Sequence record: SRR20825006_3012
Direction: 5' to 3' (one strand)
DNA length: 49,745 bases
A program made the translations under genes and the position numbers. The stretch's first letter is position 1. Every line of letters starts with the position of its first letter. The notes beneath the pieces were generated by a model. The model worked only from the letters and a program-made list of their open reading frames with translations. It made no database searches and was not told the DNA's origin. Below are positions 25,834 to 32,464 of the stretch, one piece after another.

Positions 25834-26413
25834 ACGACGGCTGCTGGCTTTCAGCTTGGCAGCGCTGCTGGGGCTGGCAGGCTGGGCCAGCTGGCTGGAT
25901 GGCAAGGCCTGGCTGGCCCAGCACTTGATCGCCCACGCCTGGCAAACCACGCTTGCACAAGGTGCCCCCCAACGCCCCTGGCCCTGGGCAGACACCTGGC
26001 CGGTAGCGCGCCTCACCACCCCCGCCGGGGAAACTTTCTATGTGCTGGAAAGTACCAGTGGTGAAGCCCTGGCTTTCGGGCCCGGCCGGCTGGCCGGCGG
26101 CATCGGCAGCGACCAGGCCCTCACCCTGGCCGGCCACCGCGACACCCACTTCGCCTTTCTGGAAACGCTCGACGCTGGCCAGCCCCTCACTGTGCAATTG
26201 GCCAACGGTTCACAGAAACATTTTCAGATCAGCAGACAGCAAGTCATCAACAGCCAACAACACCCCCTACACATCCCTCGGGACGACCAACAGCTAATAC
26301 TGATCACCTGCTACCCCTTCGGTGCCCTTACTCCCGGCGGGCCCCTGCGCTACGTGGTCACCGCCACATCGGCACCCACCAGCAACACGGAAAATAACCA
26401 GACGGAACGATGA
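25820..26413 (+). CDS. Class GN (marine proteobacterial) sortase
   Basis: KAWLAQHLI, PWPWADTWPVARL, LAFGPG, catalytic H (AGHRDTHF), C (LITCYPF), R (LRY). Confidence 0.92.
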   Translation: MVRLERRLLAFSLAALLGLAGWASWLDGKAWLAQHLIAHAWQTTLAQGAPQRPWPWADTWPVARLTTPAGETFYVLESTSGEALAFGPGRLAGGIGSDQALTLAGHRDTHFAFLETLDAGQPLTVQLANGSQKHFQISRQQVINSQQHPLHIPRDDQQLILITCYPFGALTPGGPLRYVVTATSAPTSNTENNQTER

Positions 26414-26485
26414 ACAAGCAAGGAAAAAGGGAGAAAGGGAAAAGCAGAAAGGAACAGGCCGAATGGCCAGCAAGGAAGGTATCAG

Positions 26486-26815
26486 TCAGGCGCGAGGCGC
26501 GAACATGATGATGGCCATCCCCAACAGTGCCACACCGGAACCCAGCAAATCCCATGCCGTCGGGCGGATACCGTCCACCGCCCACAACCAGAAAACCGCC
26601 ATAAAAATATAAACGCCCCCGTAAGCGGCATACACTCGACCCGCAGCAGTGGGGTGCAAGGAAAGCAACCAGGCAAACAGCGCCAGGCTTAGCGCCGCAG
26701 GCACCAGTAACCAGACTGACTTGCCTTCACGCAACCACAGGTACGGCAAGTAACAGCCCACGATCTCCGCCAGCGCCGTAATCACAAACAGCGCAAACGT
26801 CTTTATTTCCGGCAC
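26486..26815 (-). CDS. ynfA: YnfA-family small membrane protein
   Basis: [38 protein letters not shown] start inferred. Confidence 0.92.
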
Positions 26816-26874
26816 AGTCCAGCCCTTTCTCTGCTCATCCATTCACCCTTGGGAACAACAATCCACATTCCACC

Positions 26875-27303
26875 TCATGAGGCATTCCGGCAAACAGCCA
26901 GCTTCGCCTGCACAAGGTAATCGCAGAACGCAACTACATCCGGATTACTAAACTCACTGGAAATGAACTCACCCGGTATCAGCCCTTCATCCCAGCGGGT
27001 CGTCACCAACAGAGGGTTGCCCCCATCATCGCCCGGGAAAATCTCCACCACCGCATGAGTCTGGTGAATATAGACATCACGGAGATCTTTACGGCAGCGA
27101 AAATCCTCCGTATCAGAAGCCAACTTGCACTGGTAGCCCGCGTCAGAAAAGAAATTATTAGCCTCGGAAAGCAGCGCCACATAGTTGACGGGAGGATCAG
27201 ACAAAGGCTCCAGCGTCTTGATGACATCACCTGAAACGTTGGTACAAGAGGAAAAAAACGGCAAGGAAAAAATGAATAGAAGGTGCATTACTCTTTTGGA
27301 CAT
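26875..27303 (-). CDS. Hypothetical lipoprotein
   Basis: Signal peptide ending FSS-C; 142-aa ORF at the edge of the AT-rich island. Confidence 0.65.
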   Translation of the reverse strand: MSKRVMHLLFIFSLPFFSSCTNVSGDVIKTLEPLSDPPVNYVALLSEANNFFSDAGYQCKLASDTEDFRCRKDLRDVYIHQTHAVVEIFPGDDGGNPLLVTTRWDEGLIPGEFISSEFSNPDVVAFCDYLVQAKLAVCRNAS

Positions 27304-27362
27304 AGAATATCCGCAACTGACAGAAAAAAATAAAAAGAATGGCCGACGCTTCAACCTGCACA

Positions 27363-27704
27363 TTACTGGGAGTTCTCATCTTCCCTTTTTTTCGCCTTAA
27401 TAGTGGAACCAAGCGTGAAAACAGCCGCCATGTAACCAAAGACAAAGAAAAACAGAGAAGCAATCAGGCTAATAATCACATTGCCACTGGATACAACACC
27501 ATTAGCGGCACACAAGATAAGGCATACAAAAGAAAAAGGCACAGAAATAGCGAGCAGGAAAACGCTAGCCATAACAATATCATCACTATGCACAGGAAAA
27601 TTGGAGTCGAACGCAATCCTGAGGCTTATCCCGACAAAGAAAACCAGAAGAGAGGCCAATATAAAAGACACTGCCACCCTGTGGGTTATCGTTATTGATT
27701 TCAC
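27363..27704 (-). CDS. Hypothetical 3-TM membrane protein (cassette-like)
   Basis: AT-rich 113-aa ORF with three hydrophobic stretches; GTG start overlaps a degenerate core site GCTAGGT. Confidence 0.65.
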   Translation of the reverse strand: MKSITITHRVAVSFILASLLVFFVGISLRIAFDSNFPVHSDDIVMASVFLLAISVPFSFVCLILCAANGVVSSGNVIISLIASLFFFVFGYMAAVFTLGSTIKAKKREDENSQ

Positions 27705-27735
27705 CTAGCACCATTTTTATACGAATAATTCGACA
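27702..27735 (-). mobile_element. Degenerate second copy of the attI-like site
   Basis: 23/34 ungapped identity to 30953-30986, including CGAA-N3-TTCG and a G(C)TAGGT core box. Confidence 0.5.
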
Positions 27736-27827
27736 GATAAAGGCCCGATTTTATATAAAAAGAATAAAGAGCGCCGATCAGTCTATCGAAAATAGAAGAT
27801 ATGGCGCCCCTTATTCCTATCGATTAA

Positions 27828-28157
27828 TTACTTATTCAGCTTAACGACATCACCAGAGACAGTGGTTTTATAACCGTTCAACACATAAGCCCAGAACCAG
27901 TTTTCCTGAACCTGTGTGTTAATCATTGCATCACCATTTTTGGATTCAATGGCCGCTTTTTGCGCCCGCACAAAACGGCTATTTTGCTGAATCGGAATAA
28001 AGTTAAACAGCATGATCCCGGTAGCAGTCGCTTCACCGTGACCGACAACAGTGTATTCATCACTGTTAAGTTGCTGTGTTTTCATTGGTGTTCCAGCACA
28101 ACCCGACAAAATTGCAGCTGCAAGAAAAGCGCCAGCCGTGAATTTCATTTTTTTCAT
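27828..28157 (-). CDS. Small lipoprotein (TRL/Bor-like)
   Basis: GAGGGG RBS; MKKMKFTAGAFLAAAILSG-C lipobox; G.ATA.GI.LF...AIESKNGDAMIN...V.G.VV pattern. Confidence 0.75.
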   Translation of the reverse strand: MKKMKFTAGAFLAAAILSGCAGTPMKTQQLNSDEYTVVGHGEATATGIMLFNFIPIQQNSRFVRAQKAAIESKNGDAMINTQVQENWFWAYVLNGYKTTVSGDVVKLNK

Positions 28158-28323
28158 TTGAGTCCCCTCATAATGTGATATTGAATGACAGCCTAAGCTG
28201 CGTTGATCACCCAACGAATGGGTCGGGCAAAGTGGCAATACGCAAAGGGACCACTATCAACCTGGTCTTTTAATCCCTTTGCTTATAGATATTTTTCATG
28301 AAACTGGGAATCATCCCCTTAAC

Positions 28324-28385
28324 AGCTAACGCTTATTAAAACCGCTGACACTACCCTCTCAGGCATTAGCCAGCCCTTGTTAGCT
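28324..28385 (-). mobile_element. attC-like site (partly degenerate)
   Basis: Minus strand AGCTAAC-AAGG-GCTGGCTA...TGTCAGC...GC-GTTAGCT, 3 nt after the stop of the 28389-28883 gene; right spacer longer than canonical. Confidence 0.65.
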
Positions 28386-28388
28386 TTT

Positions 28389-28883
28389 TCAATTTGGAAA
28401 ATGGAACACGGGAGCATCCTTACTATGACAATCACCGTAGTATCGGATATTGACACCCCCACCGTTTGGAAGCTGTGTCATCACAACGGAAAGACCCGAT
28501 TTATTATCGGTGCGCTTTGATAGAGGGTCATTAAATACCCAAACCTCATAAAACACTGGGGCGTCGTGCTTCACTATACGAGTTTCAGTCAATGCAGAAG
28601 ATTGAAGGCCACAATTCTTCATGATGGCGCCAAATATGTCCCGCCTGACCTGAGGCGCTAGCTCAGATATGCTTTTCCCGGGCACCCCTGCCCACTCAAC
28701 ATTTGCCACTGACCTCCCACCATCAGATGGCGTCACCACATATCGAAAGGGCGAAAATTGATTTTCCAGCGCCTGATTGGCCGAGCGTAAAGCTGTATCA
28801 CCAGTCGGATTTCCAGCACACCCTGAAAAAAACATCGCAGCAAATAGTACTATTGATAAATATCTGGTCATTAATAAATCCAT
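28389..28883 (-). CDS. Hypothetical lipoprotein (cassette gene)
   Basis: Signal peptide ending FFSG-C; followed by an attC-like site. Confidence 0.75.
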   Translation of the reverse strand: MDLLMTRYLSIVLFAAMFFSGCAGNPTGDTALRSANQALENQFSPFRYVVTPSDGGRSVANVEWAGVPGKSISELAPQVRRDIFGAIMKNCGLQSSALTETRIVKHDAPVFYEVWVFNDPLSKRTDNKSGLSVVMTQLPNGGGVNIRYYGDCHSKDAPVFHFPN

Positions 28884-28989
28884 CTTTAATTTTAATTCAG
28901 GGCCAGCGGATTAATACCTTATTTTTACCATTGAAACACGAGGCAAGCCCTGACCCTGAGTCCTTGCTTCCGCATAAATTGCACAAAGT

Positions 28990-29017
28990 TGACCGCCGAC
29001 TTGCAGCGCTTTTATAC
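28990..29017 (-). mobile_element. Broken attC (left half only)
   Basis: Minus strand GTATAA[lost C]AAGCGCTGCAAG 4 nt after the stop; GTATAAC is the R'' predicted from this cassette's GTTATAC start; no matching R' seen. Confidence 0.55.
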
Positions 29018-29021
29018 GCTC

Positions 29022-29483
29022 TCACTTCCAGAACTCCCAGAACCGCTTACTATTTCGCTTTTTCCATTCTATATACCTTCGCGAAACCCTCTGACTTATA
29101 ATTTTTTGGTTTTCCCATGTGTAGGGAACATGAAATTCTGAAGGTAACTTCTTAACCAATAACTCTGAGTAATCGGAAATATATTTTCCCTTATCGAAAT
29201 CGAAGTAATCTGAGGCAAACGCGTTAGCTTCTTCTGAGAGCATTTCGCCCATTAAACATCGGTCCCACCACTCATAGACATCGATAGCAGTTTTAGCCTG
29301 AGACTTGTATTTGTTGATCAGGTCCGAGCTTTCATATTCAAACTCATCACTGCATAAGTCATTTTCAATAAGCCAGCCAAGAAAAAAAGCCGTGTGAACA
29401 GAGGCTCTCTCTTCTGGAAGACCGCTATTCATCACAGTTTCATCATGATACTTCGCTTTGTCGTAGACAATGGAATTCCCCAT
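29022..29483 (-). CDS. Cassette 5 gene: hypothetical protein (YDKAKYH...HTAFFLGW motif)
   Basis: GAGG RBS just after the GTTATAC core; acidic 153-aa protein ending KRFWEFWK. Confidence 0.82.
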   Translation of the reverse strand: MGNSIVYDKAKYHDETVMNSGLPEERASVHTAFFLGWLIENDLCSDEFEYESSDLINKYKSQAKTAIDVYEWWDRCLMGEMLSEEANAFASDYFDFDKGKYISDYSELLVKKLPSEFHVPYTWENQKIISQRVSRRYIEWKKRNSKRFWEFWK

Positions 29484-29492
29484 CTTTACCTC

Positions 29493-29544
29493 GTATAACG
29501 CCCAGCACAGCCGCCGAAGGTCGGCCTGCTGCTACTTGTTATGT
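29493..29544 (-). mobile_element. attC site (52 bp)
   Basis: ACATAAC-AAGTA-GCA(G)CAG...CTGTGC-TGGGC-GTTATAC: R''/L''/L'/R' boxes, 5-nt spacers, extrahelical base. Confidence 0.92.
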
Positions 29545-29858
29545 TTATTCAGGCGCCTAAATAACGCCCTTAAATTTAATCCAAACCCAAAGAAATTTGG
29601 TTTTAGTTCGACTATATCTTCCGACTCACCTTTATCCTCGGTACTTTCTTGAGCTGCAAGCCACTCTCTACCCAGCATAGTTATTCTGGGCCCCAAATAG
29701 CACAAGCCATCATCGCTACAGGCATCAGCAGCTTCAACATAACCTATGTCATAAAGCTCTTTTAGTATCCGAACATCAACTTCACCAGAAGACTCACTCA
29801 CAATTGAAATGTTCGGATTAGAAATCAAGTATCTCAGCAAGGAAGAATGCTCACTCAA
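29532..29858 (-). CDS. Cassette 4 gene: hypothetical protein, possible winged-helix
   Basis: AAGGGG RBS + TTG; LKELYDIGYV...ITMLGREWL wing-like motif; C-terminal ELKPNFFGFGLNL; stop lies inside attC. Confidence 0.78.
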   Translation of the reverse strand: MSEHSSLLRYLISNPNISIVSESSGEVDVRILKELYDIGYVEAADACSDDGLCYLGPRITMLGREWLAAQESTEDKGESEDIVELKPNFFGFGLNLRALFRRLNKHNK

Positions 29859-29875
29859 TATGATTCCCCTTTAAA

Positions 29876-29951
29876 ACATAACGCCTTGCGCAGCGGCGCG
29901 AGGAACGAGCGTCCGGCCCAGAAGGGGCTTTACTGCTGCTATTTGTTATAT
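29876..29951 (-). mobile_element. attC site (76 bp)
   Basis: ATATAAC-AAATA-GCAGCAG...CTGCGC-AAGGC-GTTATGT. Confidence 0.92.
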
Positions 29952-30241
29952 TTTTTTCTCGAAACTATTACATCTATGATAATGGATGCTCCTGCAGCAC
30001 CAAACATAGCCCAAAGTATATGCGTAAACCTGCCTGACCACCCTGGAATATCCGTCAACAAAACTTCCTTAAAGGAAACACCTGCACCATAGGAGATAAA
30101 AAGCGCTACTAGAAGGAAAACACACGCTGCCAAGCAATACCCAACCGTATAAATTCTCTCTTCGTTTCCAGATGCTCGCTGCCAAACCAAAAGCAGTCCA
30201 CCAAGAAATACGCTAAACCACAAATCACCCAAGACCCTCAT
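29939..30241 (-). CDS. Cassette 3 gene: 3-TM hypothetical membrane protein
   Basis: ATG 7 nt after the GTTATAT core; three hydrophobic segments; stop inside attC. Confidence 0.75.
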   Translation of the reverse strand: MRVLGDLWFSVFLGGLLLVWQRASGNEERIYTVGYCLAACVFLLVALFISYGAGVSFKEVLLTDIPGWSGRFTHILWAMFGAAGASIIIDVIVSRKKYNK

Positions 30242-30248
30242 CCCCAAA

Positions 30249-30299
30249 ATATAACGCCGCAAGCAGCGGCCGCAGCTCCGATGCCTTGCCTTGTTACGG
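30249..30299 (-). mobile_element. attC site (51 bp)
   Basis: CCGTAAC-AAGGC-AAG(G)CAT-CGG...CCG-CTGCTT-GCGGC-GTTATAT. Confidence 0.9.
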
Positions 30300-30611
30300 T
30301 TTCTCACCACTCTTTATTTCCACGGTAAAGCCAATACCATTCCTCGTCTTTACACCTGAAAGAGAGAGCCCCATTTTTTGCAACTCTTCATCTTCTGAAC
30401 AAGTGAAAACCTCGCTCTCTGAGCACCAAAGCCTGAATGCCACAAGCTTTGCTCCTTCATGATCCTGAGTGCAGCGCCATAGCTTTCCATGCTCATCTTC
30501 CACTGCATATACCGGGTAGGCTCTTTTAACTACAGCTGGATCTATATACATGGAAATTTCCATGCCTTCATAAGTAATGTCGTTTCCTAGAACTCTTACT
30601 GGGTTTTGCAT
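30294..30611 (-). CDS. Cassette 2 gene: hypothetical protein
   Basis: GGTGG RBS + ATG after the GTTACGG core; TAA stop is part of R'' (CCGTAAC). Confidence 0.75.
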   Translation of the reverse strand: MQNPVRVLGNDITYEGMEISMYIDPAVVKRAYPVYAVEDEHGKLWRCTQDHEGAKLVAFRLWCSESEVFTCSEDEELQKMGLSLSGVKTRNGIGFTVEIKSGEKP

Positions 30612-30628
30612 AAACCACCATTTTGTAT

Positions 30629-30676
30629 CCGTAACGCTCTGGTCACGCGCTCGTCGCGTGCACCTTCTTGTTAAGT
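30629..30676 (-). mobile_element. attC site (48 bp)
   Basis: ACTTAAC-AAGAA-GGT(G)CAC-GCG-ACGAG-CGC-GTGACC-AGAGC-GTTACGG. Confidence 0.9.
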
Positions 30677-30949
30677 ACCTTCTGAGCCAGCACTCAACCT
30701 CTGAATCAGTTCTACGCAGCAAATAGTGGTAAACATATAGCGCCCTGCTTCGGAAGCCACCTCTACCACCACCCCTTCACTATCTAGAACCTTGTCTGCG
30801 ACAACCCAATCTAGGAGTTTTTGCTCCAATTTAAGGTGAGAAAAATCTTCACCGAGCATGACCACTTTGGCCGACACGTACTGATTTGGGCCAGAATCAA
30901 ACCTGACCGTGTCGCCCAACAATATTCGCTCACCCGATTCATAGTTCAT
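30671..30949 (-). CDS. Cassette 1 gene: hypothetical protein (SH3-like beta-barrel pattern)
   Basis: MNYESGERILLGDTVRF...AKVV...GVVVE; TAA stop is part of R'' (ACTTAAC). Confidence 0.75.
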   Translation of the reverse strand: MNYESGERILLGDTVRFDSGPNQYVSAKVVMLGEDFSHLKLEQKLLDWVVADKVLDSEGVVVEVASEAGRYMFTTICCVELIQRLSAGSEGT

Positions 30950-30952
30950 AAG

Positions 30953-30989
30953 CACTTAACAGCGTATTCAGTCGAACGGTTCGACATAA
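30953..30989 (-). mobile_element. attI-like site heading the cassette array
   Basis: G|TTAAGT core (complement of cassette 1 R'' ACTTAAC) with no upstream attC hairpin; instead preceded by TTATGTCGAACCGTTCGAC. Confidence 0.7.
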
Positions 30990-31141
30990 TTCTTAACCAG
31001 GCAGCACTCAGATCAACCAAAATATCCAGCATGAACAATGATATGGAGCACCGTCGAGAATTTATCTCGTCTGACAAAAGTCGACATAACGGGTTATTTC
31101 CTGAGTGAACTTGGTTCCCCTTATCCCTGGAAATCACTTTA

Positions 31142-31154
31142 TATCAACCGCTTA
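31142..31154 (+). promoter_or_regulatory. IHF-binding consensus
   Basis: TATCAA-CCGC-TTA exactly matches WATCAANNNNTTR, ~180 bp upstream of the attI-like core. Confidence 0.5.
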
Positions 31155-31234
31155 GATTTTTATGTAAGCCATATCCTACAAATTCGCACCCGATTCTGTT
31201 GAGCACGGGCTGGTCAGGATTTGGCTGCACCAAG

Positions 31235-31261
31235 GTTCGCACCTCAAGAGGTACTCCTACA
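31235..31261 (-). repeat. GTAG-family REP copy
   Basis: GTTCGCACCTCAAGAGGTACTCCTACA. Confidence 0.7.
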
Positions 31262-31274
31262 GAAAAGCAGGGAC

Positions 31275-31303
31275 AAAAAAACGCGGCCTTGGCCGCGTTT
31301 TTT
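31275..31303. terminator. Bidirectional terminator after acyl-CoA dehydrogenase
   Basis: AAAAAAACGCGGCC-TT-GGCCGCGTTTTTT. Confidence 0.9.
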
Positions 31304-31324
31304 GTGAAACATGAAAGGAAGCGA

Positions 31325-32464
31325 TTAACGCCCGATAATGTCCCGGGAGATAATTTCTTTCATGATTTCGCTGGTGCCGCCGTAGATACGCTGGATGCGG
31401 GCGTCCACGTAATCGCGGGAGATGGGGTATTCCTGCATGTAGCCGTAACCACCGAACAGTTGCAGACATTTGTCGGCGACCACGCCTTGCAGCTCGGTGG
31501 TGGTGAGCTTGGCGATGGAGGCGTTGGTGGCGGTGAGTTCGTTGCGATCGTACTGGTCGATGCACTGCTCACCGTAGGCGCGGTTAACCACGACCTGTGC
31601 GTGCAGGTCCGCCAGCACGAAGCGGGTGTTTTGCAGGCTGGAGATCGGCTTGCCAAACGCCATGCGCTCCTTGGTGTATTCGATGGTGCGCTCGATCATG
31701 CCTTCGCAAGCAGCGATGGCGCCCAGGGCCAGGATCAGGCGTTCGCGGGGCAGTTCGTTCATCAGGTTGGCGAAGCCTTTGCCTTCACCACCAAGAATCT
31801 GGTCGGCGCCGACTTTCACGTTTTCGAAGAACAGCTCGGAGGTATCCGCCGCGTGGTGGCCCATTTTTTCCAGGTTGCGGCCACGGGCAAAGCCGTCCAG
31901 GGCGCAATCCACGGTGAACAGGGTCATGCCTTTGGAACCGGCATTGGGGTCGGTCTTGGTGGCGAGCACGATCACGTCGCAGTGCTGGCCGTTGGTGATG
32001 AAGGTTTTCTGGCCGCTGATACTGTAGCCATCGCCGTCCTTGTCGGCACGGGTTTTCATGCCCTGCAGGTCAGAACCGGCACCAGGTTCGGTCATGCCGA
32101 TGGCGCCTACGGCTTCACCGGTCACCATTTTCGGCAACCAGGCTTGTTTCTGCTCTTCGTTGCCCAGGTGCAGGATGTAAGGAGCGACGATGTCGGAGTG
32201 CACGGAAATGTTAGACGCCAATGCACCAAAACCGGCGCGGGAGGCTTCTTCCACAATCACCGCAGACAGGCGGAAGTTGGCGCCGAAGCCGCCGTATTCT
32301 TCCGGGACGTCCACACACAGCAGGCCATTTTCGCCCATCTTGTTCCACAGCTCGCGGGGGAACATTTCGGCTTTTTCCCACTGGTCGTAGTGAGGAGCGA
32401 CTTCGTTTTCGAGGAATTTTTTGACGTTATCGCGAAACAGTTCGATTTCGTTCTGATCAAGCAT
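31325..32464 (-). CDS. Acyl-CoA dehydrogenase (long-chain type)
   Basis: IGMTEPGAGSDL, GQKTFITNG, DTSELFF, QLFGGYGYMQEY, IYGGTSEIMK. Confidence 0.95.
   Translation of the reverse strand: MLDQNEIELFRDNVKKFLENEVAPHYDQWEKAEMFPRELWNKMGENGLLCVDVPEEYGGFGANFRLSAVIVEEASRAGFGALASNISVHSDIVAPYILHLGNEEQKQAWLPKMVTGEAVGAIGMTEPGAGSDLQGMKTRADKDGDGYSISGQKTFITNGQHCDVIVLATKTDPNAGSKGMTLFTVDCALDGFARGRNLEKMGHHAADTSELFFENVKVGADQILGGEGKGFANLMNELPRERLILALGAIAACEGMIERTIEYTKERMAFGKPISSLQNTRFVLADLHAQVVVNRAYGEQCIDQYDRNELTATNASIAKLTTTELQGVVADKCLQLFGGYGYMQEYPISRDYVDARIQRIYGGTSEIMKEIISRDIIGR

Follow-up and report, generated by a model that had tools for sequence, protein, structure and literature searches.

How can gene cassettes be gained and lost at a chromosomal site that encodes no integrase? 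A cassette array in sequence record SRR20825006_3012 raises this question. We analyzed a 49.7-kb stretch of this record (hereafter the window, to which all positions refer unless a contig is named; cassettes on its minus strand read right to left) and compared it with 24 genomes of the marine genus Alcanivorax. An earlier note, made from the letters alone, had described the head of the array as an unusual, undescribed attI-like landing site, free of an integrase and served in trans. The head does recur before attC-bearing cassettes at many loci with no adjacent integrase, and service in trans is plausible. The labels unusual and undescribed did not hold up, since the site is an ordinary attI, which we call type A and which stands beside the integrase gene intI, with its whole leader, in seven genomes. 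We conclude that window 30954–31208 is probably an integron platform that lacks an integrase gene and is served, in trans, by an integron integrase (IntI) encoded elsewhere, that is, a cluster of attC sites without an integron integrase (CALIN) that has retained its own attI and leader. Sequence homology, the anatomy of the junction, recurrence, orthology and strain-level differences in cassette content are established by the observations described below.

An attI and its leader at the array head

We located attC sites with a covariance model (R1) whose seeds were 18 attC-like sites from the window and from its nearest relative genome (G001). Of the 12 consensus pairs in the model, seven show compensatory changes, and the L stem contains a bulged column; with an imperfect palindrome, paired R and L boxes and conservation at the level of structure rather than sequence, these attC sites are genuine. 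Five lie in the window, at 28324–28385, 29493–29544, 29876–29951, 30249–30299 and 30629–30676 (all E ≤ 2e-5), and R1 finds no sixth in the 49.7 kb (next best match, E = 0.24). As the five sites are among the seeds of the model, the informative part of this result is the silence elsewhere in the window. A finder based on AAC..GTT words and DNA folding was tried and replaced by the covariance model; it returned 29–31 matches per strand, mostly in GC-rich host genes, and recovered one real site. In a tblastn search with three types of IntI, the 49.7-kb window gave no match, which leaves the locus short of a complete integron. With five attC sites and no IntI match, it is a CALIN as the term is used by Cury et al. 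2016 (PMC4889954).

The source of the array head became apparent from intI loci elsewhere in the genus. An intI match (E ≤ 1e-25) is present in 21 of the 24 genomes, as a single match in 18 of those, and when the regions upstream of the 21 loci were aligned, 19 fell into three types (A, B and C). In seven type-A genomes (L110, L111, L112, L113, L114, L115 and L120), the attI beside intI has the same sequence as the heads that stand alone: TAACAGCGTATTCAGTCGAA..TTCGACATATCTTTTTTCGACATA lies ~250–330 bp upstream of a full-length intI (TIGR02249, 388–398 bits), and the leader that follows is homologous to the window and solo modules over the whole stretch to GTTGAGCACGG, ~50 bp before the start of intI. 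The array head is, on this homology, the genus's type-A attI together with the entire attI-to-intI leader, minus the gene itself. Type B, with seven loci including the only intI of G001, has TAACAGCGTATT in common with type A and is laid out in the same way, with a pair of direct repeats, a palindrome (GAAC-GTTC) and a CTGT-N8-ACAG box, which we take to resemble a LexA site; the five type-C loci are more distant. IntI identity is 67% between types A and B and 45% between A and C.

The module is also abundant. A 271-bp query matches 22 of the 24 genomes, with 4–13 matches per genome, and other loci of G001 hold the ~255 bp that extend rightwards from the core as far as 31208, each copy being followed by cassettes. 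Among public sequences, 36 of 58 matches to the attI pattern fall in Alcanivorax or Alloalcanivorax. The other 22 are mostly single matches in unrelated taxa, with ~17 expected by chance for a pattern of 18 fixed bases; the rest come from a few loosely labelled proteobacterial assemblies with attC arrays, which may be Alcanivorax-like DNA.

An alignment of 28 modules reveals a consistent architecture, in which likeness opens exactly at TAAC and proceeds through a near-invariant attI part (TAACAGCGTATTCAGTCGAACGRTTCGACATATCTTTTTTCGACATAATTCTT), a variable stretch, a middle box and a strongly conserved distal box to TTCTGTTGAGCACGG. In the window, the R-box core GTTAAGT (30954–30960, minus strand) forms the junction between attI and the first cassette, with the crossover between 30959 and 30960. 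The type-A attI is present in a short form (30957–30999, minus strand) that consists of the simple site AATAC-GCT-GTTA, the palindrome GTCGAAC-G-GTTCGAC (30971–30985) and one TTCGACATA repeat. It scores 41.6 bits (E = 5e-12) with R2, a sequence model made from 44 distinct attI-A sites for which we regard 35 bits or more as a strong match, and 40.4 bits with nhmmer. The middle box of the leader (31070–31103, minus strand; TCTGACAAAAGTCGACATAACGGGTTATTTCCTG) includes, at 31081–31089, the second copy of TCGACATAA, the first being at 30981–30989, exactly 100 bp away. The distal box (31131–31185, minus strand) contains TATCAACCGCTTA at 31142–31154, which fits the consensus WATCAANNNNTTR for integration host factor (IHF); an IHF consensus is present in all 28 aligned modules. 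Both this site and the exact 100-bp repeat had been pointed out in the earlier note. On the minus strand of the distal box (31146–31138) we also find TGATATAAA, a candidate extended −10 element aimed at the cassettes; TGnTATARA occurs in 23 of the 28 modules. The module closes with an end box (31194–31208, plus strand; TTCTGTTGAGCACGG). Likeness between paralogous modules ends just past this box, and the intI start codon follows ~50 bp beyond it in intI-linked copies.

Conservation is concentrated in these elements. Across 19 orthologous modules, all located by the same acyl-CoA dehydrogenase gene, mean column identity is 0.78–0.95 in the attI part and the distal box and 0.37–0.46 in the stretch between them, out of which the middle box rises to 0.64–0.72 (mean pairwise); the middle box is found in intI-linked leaders too. 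Contigs from RNA libraries (four runs, compared with 30300–31350) cover parts of cassettes 1 and 2 as well as 31075–31303, although starts and strand are not readable from contigs and such libraries may contain DNA. Copies of attI from other organisms are also among the contigs of these runs.

The sharp right end of the module contains, at 31198–31204 on the plus strand, the word GTTGAGC, a perfect match to GTTRRRY, and all old solo modules end just past it. We considered this word as a crossover point and rejected it, as conservation between paralogues continues past its G|TT, on the right, in the 28-module alignment.

The anatomy of the head bears on the suggestion that a different tyrosine recombinase, such as XerCD, serves the site in place of IntI. 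TTATGTCGAA is a sequence that we take to resemble the XerD arm of dif, and no IntI of the matching type was seen in G001. However, the identical site adjoins intI in seven genomes, and the R box, which pairs with attC boxes, has its crossovers at G|TT, as is the case at IntI-linked sites. Moreover, the palindrome arms of the window attI are 1 base apart, whereas Xer sites consist of two inverted 11-bp arms around a central region of 6–8 bp. Nothing in the comparison points to XerCD, and we regard this possibility, raised in the earlier note, as close to negligible.

Solo platforms and the turnover of their cassettes

Across the genus, most type-A sites have no intI beside them. R2 yields 65 strong attI-A matches in 22 of the 24 genomes, seven of which are intI-linked and 58 of which have no intI match at their position. 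Its 26 weak matches (21–28 bits) include eight type-B sites beside intI and two others that are solo type-B platforms in G001 (L153, contig 9, 481–700; L154, contig 18, 96–300). Each of these two has an attI and an inverted second repeat-palindrome ~150 bp away, with no intI, so both types of attI have integrase-less copies in a single genome. We defined a site as solo when no IntI lies within 900 bp on the module side and the flank available on that side is 1300 bp or longer. By this measure, the 59 unique type-A sites among the loci compared divide into 7 with a full IntI, 47 solo sites, 3 with intI remnants or a truncated end, and 2 whose flank is too short for assignment. The three remnant sites (L052, L102 and L054) all belong to one genome, G021, and are young copies of its type-A platform, each broken at a different point: two keep the first 30–45 codons of intI and one breaks just past the end box. 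These copies are snapshots of the origin of solo platforms.

In a profile scan of related genomes, a check that the earlier note had proposed, the array-head site both precedes attC cassettes and matches the attI beside intI in 7 of the 24 genomes. Of 27 other solo modules, three of which had supplied R1 seeds, 23 are accompanied by one or more attC sites on the cassette side in the 1.3–7.5 kb examined per module. The orientation of attC is as expected in 46 of 46 cases, and none occurs in 47,337 bp on the other side of solo modules. Of the four modules that lack attC, three have a mutated core. We detected no recombinase domain in the 52 flanking ORFs (open reading frames) scanned of 79 candidates; outside this set were the repeats from the dehydrogenase group and the majority of third-ranked ORFs.

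These numbers also speak to a view of the module as a regulatory or mobile repeat that is dispersed, such as a promoter cassette or a miniature inverted-repeat transposable element (MITE), and merely happens to lie near cassette arrays. Its many copies per genome, its sharp right end after GTTGAGCACGG and a distal box that occurs alone more commonly than the attI part would suit such a repeat. Yet no inverted repeat brackets 30953–31212 among the 25 longest of 87 pairs reported, so that the module lacks the terminal inverted repeats of a MITE or insertion sequence. Its fixed orientation relative to attC arrays and its full-length homology to the attI–intI intergenic region further argue against this account, which we find scarcely credible.

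Solo platforms recur at particular chromosomal anchors, namely ordinary genes for acyl-CoA dehydrogenase, haem peroxidase, DUF5924/DUF2914, GlmS and IlvD. The anchor in the window is a housekeeping acyl-CoA dehydrogenase gene (31325–32464, minus strand; assigned by Pfam and synteny), the terminator of which directly adjoins the module. An attI-A is found by this same gene in 19 of 22 sequences, comprising the window and G001 together with 17 of the 20 other genomes; G003 and G021 have none there, and G002 has a distal-box remnant only. Between the attI and a conserved distal ORF (26875–27303 in the window) lie 0–11 attC sites with species-specific cassettes. At a second G001 locus we found no empty site, the equivalent places in G020, G002 and G021 being occupied by ~2.3 kb of other DNA without attC or attI-A, and insertion boundaries and target duplications are consequently not definable. 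As a side observation, ilvD anchors solo platforms in L031 (G012) and L038 (G007) and is reported as a neighbor of Xanthomonas integrons (PMC12444791), which may be a coincidence or a shared preference.

The junction at the head of the window array retains the imprint of its first cassette. On the minus strand it reads GCTG|TTAAGT, and the attC of cassette 1 contains, at 30670–30676, the box ACTTAAC, to which GTTAAGT is exactly complementary. The corresponding junction in G001 reads G|TTAGGC, and the first cassette there carries GCCTAAC (core GTTAGGC). A junction half that is complementary to the first cassette's own attC box is the signature of attI × attC insertion. A stretch of 98 bases from a cassette end stands in G001 directly next to an attC on contig 9 and, unchanged, directly next to the solo type-B attI on contig 18; both junctions are at contig starts, and these may thus represent two copies or two variants within a population.

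Closely related strains differ in cassette content at precisely this point. Sequence identity between the window and G001 is 97–99% on both sides of the array, whereas window 29504–30956 (1453 bp) is replaced by 394 bp in G001. One breakpoint is inside an attC and the other is exactly at the core ACTTAAC (30954–30960), and the likeness of the window to G001 and 27 other modules begins exactly at TAAC. A 32-mer from the window is present in four metagenome contigs, two of which have the window form and two of which (L156/L158) carry a third array, with three attC sites. The latter are 96.7–98.2% identical to the window and G001 from the module rightwards, with the identity ending at TAAC. The three cassette sets of three near-identical strains are hence all different, and they part exactly at TAAC in the core.

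Could the platform nevertheless be a fossil, that is, the remnant of an integron that lost intI long ago and is now inert, conserved by gene conversion or recent spread and with array differences that stem from homologous recombination with other strains? The retention in G002 of five well-conserved solo sites without any intI would fit this scenario, as would the frameshifted intI of G001 and the solo modules without attC, most of them with mutated cores. The fresh G021 copies with truncated intI also indicate that loss of intI does happen. However, a fossil would hardly be kept by the same gene in most sequences compared, with a footprint limited to attI and two boxes, or hold cassette sets that break exactly at the core in near-identical strains, and any imported arrays must themselves have been assembled at such a site. 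We therefore view an inert remnant as unlikely. The earlier note had allowed that its motif might simply have belonged, as a known attI, to an adjacent intI since deleted, and have no activity of its own. The second half of that statement fails, because cassette turnover continues at the solo site.

Proposed service in trans and a possible distributed integron

If the platform is served in trans, an IntI encoded elsewhere in the genome, or brought in, would bind the solo attI and insert circular cassettes at the G|TT of GCTG|TTA, and cassettes would be removed by attC × attC or attI × attC recombination. The distal box would provide a promoter, perhaps an IHF-dependent one, and each small array would then be expressed from its own head.

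Several observations weigh against this interpretation. Our search for the IntI of the source organism was confined to the 49.7-kb window. The nearest relative, G001, has a type-B intI only, 67% identical to type A, and this gene (L015, contig 3, 3878–4868) has a 5-bp insertion (a duplicated GCTGC) relative to the intact gene of G009, which shifts the frame near codon 185. It may be a pseudogene or an assembly error, and G001 itself may be a metagenome assembly. In G002, a single contig rated 100% complete, there are five solo type-A sites and no intI, and the platforms must be idle at present, at least in that genome. In the majority of genomes that have solo type-A sites, intI is of type B or type C or is missing altogether, and recognition of attI is reported to be restricted to the cognate integrase (PMC2095811). 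The window attI is short of one of two direct repeats, as it lacks a 15-bp stretch bearing the second TTCGACATA repeat, a deletion seen otherwise in L051 alone within the 28-module alignment. A scan for the sigma-70 consensus finds no promoter in the module. Finally, homologous recombination, acting between the module and cassettes held in common, could have brought in the differences between strains. If the platforms are indeed served in trans, the persistence of type-A sites in genomes with only type-B or type-C integrases would make the specificity of attI recognition directly testable.

Extended to the genus, service in trans would amount to a distributed integron, with mostly no more than one intI per genome and several docking platforms at fixed chromosomal anchors. 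We speculate further, as a possibility that we hold to be doubtful, that this arrangement is selectively maintained, with one IntI (of any of the three types, or a visiting one) serving several stations of attI plus promoter, and that the unit may copy itself as a discrete module ending at the GTTRRRY-like box GTTGAGC.

How does such a platform relate to known systems? According to PMC4889954 and PMC9024848, the definition of a CALIN takes no account of attI because attI is unknown for most integrons. CALIN cassettes are expected to be mobilized in trans, and conserved CALIN positions are described in Xanthomonas (PMC12444791). Like a CALIN, the window array consists of attC sites without an integrase. 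Unlike one that arises, as is commonly envisaged, by the splitting of an array and has no Pc promoter, it possesses a complete attI and a conserved leader, and the platforms occupy a fixed chromosomal anchor across the genus and outnumber complete integrons by ~8 to 1. Its closest counterpart is the type-A sedentary chromosomal integron of Alcanivorax (intI – attI – Pc), with which it shares the attI, the leader blocks and their orientation to the cassettes. It differs from the complete form in having no intI and, in old solo copies, a distal box with ..TGTAAGCCATATCCTACAA in place of the intI-linked ..TTTTAAGAGATCTCTTACAA.

The attI1 site of class 1 integrons is composed of a simple site (L and R) plus the direct repeats DR1 and DR2. 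The type-A site is similar in that its R box contains G|TT, a weak, inverted L box stands 3 bases from it and a pair of direct repeats (TATGTCGAA twice) lies further upstream. It is distinguished by the absence of sequence likeness past GTTA, by an additional perfect palindrome, GTCGAAC-G-GTTCGAC, and by a third repeat ~100 bp upstream, and its binding by IntI is putative. Cassettes can also insert at non-classical genomic attG sites, as described in a preprint (10.1101/2022.09.11.507474). Cassettes reach the chromosome away from an integron in both cases, but the target here is a full attI with its leader at conserved loci rather than a minimal, scattered site. In the literature outside subscription journals, our searches turned up no study of integrons in Alcanivorax, nor of CALINs that have an attI.

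Integrons are generally pictured as consisting of a single integrase, a single attI and a single array, with expression confined to the cassettes closest to the promoter. CALINs, although common, have been treated as debris or as silent stores, partly since attI is unknown outside a few classes. In Alcanivorax, attI is recognizable, and most docking sites of the whole genus prove to be integrase-less. Solo platforms have been kept at fixed loci through speciation, with cassettes still changing between strains. If IntI does serve them in trans, a genome could express many first-position cassettes at once; a distributed integron, should it exist, would express many short arrays in place of one long and mostly silent array.

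The proposed second site and the surroundings of the array

The earlier note had proposed that two integrase-free platforms stand in tandem, the second and older being a 34-bp site at 27702–27735 (minus strand), an AT-rich spacer with the palindrome CGAAT-T-ATTCG ahead of an ORF at 27363–27704. We could reproduce the likeness behind this proposal. The minus-strand alignment of 30953–30986 with 27702–27735 matches at 23 of 34 positions without gaps, is the best such match in the window and is equaled in 1 of 300 mononucleotide shuffles of a 4066-bp island, which makes the resemblance to this one attI copy unusual. Both sites have TGTCGAA and a CGAA-N3-TTCG palindrome at the same spacing, and both stand directly ahead of a minus-strand ORF (ATG at 30949 and GTG at 27704), so the second could be a relic of attI. 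However, it reads GCTAGGT where the motif of the note requires GTTRRRY, fits that motif only when one mismatch is allowed and consequently has no GTT crossover triplet; a chance expectation of zero for the motif is circular because it was derived from these same two sites. No leader or distal box accompanies the site, and R1 finds no attC between 26875 and 28324, that is, none following it. A search by nhmmer with the 28 aligned modules gives no match there at E ≤ 10. R2 assigns 4.6 bits (E = 1.8) to the palindrome part alone (27716–27735), a chance-level score that ranks below two matches inside host genes. The surrounding 1031-bp segment occurs in 1 of the 24 genomes, the sister strain G001, and thus never recurs ahead of cassettes, which refutes it as a class. 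We do not regard the site as a second platform and consider a tandem arrangement very unlikely; a 34-bp relic is one possibility, and a palindrome that lies by chance in the 5′ spacer of a cassette is another.

The array itself lies in a low-GC island (26875–31270; GC content 0.39–0.53, compared with 0.57–0.69 in the flanks), all small ORFs of which are on the minus strand, with the array head at the right end. Cassette 1 (30635–30959, minus strand, as are all that follow) encodes a 92-amino-acid protein without a Pfam family (ORF 30671–30949; attC at 45.4 bits with R1) and is not found in G001. Cassette 2 (30255–30634; ORF 30294–30611; attC 30249–30299, 46.8 bits) has a junction, G|TTACGG, that pairs with its own CCGTAAC box. 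It is followed by cassette 3 (29882–30254), with a membrane-like ORF (29939–30241; attC 29876–29951, 43.8 bits), and by cassette 4 (29499–29881; ORF 29532–29858; attC 29493–29544, 56.8 bits), the last strain-specific one, likeness to G001 returning at 29503. The final unit (28330–29498; attC 28324–28385, 28.1 bits) is a fused double cassette with a DUF7832 ORF (29022–29483) and a lipoprotein-like ORF (28389–28883). Between the two lies a decayed attC (~28890–29020) with both outer boxes mutated, which indicates that two cassettes merged into one 1169-bp unit. Within it, 28973–29012 is 88% like the interior of an attC from the intI-linked array of G001, and TTTTATA stands in place of the TTGTTA box. 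The ORFs of the cassettes are small and not assignable to a function, DUF7832 alone scoring clearly in Pfam.

At the far end of the array, a conserved, lipoprotein-like ORF (26875–27303, minus strand) has nucleotide matches of 69–86% at the equivalent position in 15 of 20 other genomes, besides G001. Genes for a VWA protein, a sortase and a YnfA-family protein lie to the left of the island, and the acyl-CoA dehydrogenase gene with its terminator lies to the right. The YnfA-family gene (26486–26842) is found at this locus solely in the subclade of the window (G001, G009, G011 and G019), and a YnfA-family match exists elsewhere in the genome in at least five others (G004, G005, G013, G023 and G024); as it lies on the cassette strand, it may be an old fixed insertion. 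No Rfam family was detected in 26400–31500 at E ≤ 1.

Two repeats were encountered near the modules. A 29–32-base repeat (GGTTCGCACCTCAAG...) at window 31231–31265 occurs in G001 at over 20 places, frequently in inverted pairs ~100 bp apart. It resembles repetitive extragenic palindromic sequences and bacterial interspersed mosaic elements (REP/BIME) and has the highest depth of the stretch in the RNA-library contigs. The other, a ~235-base noncoding element with no Rfam family at gathering score, adjoins one module (L016 2954–3189, G001 contig 11); it occurs twice on that contig and is found in at least 14 genomes.

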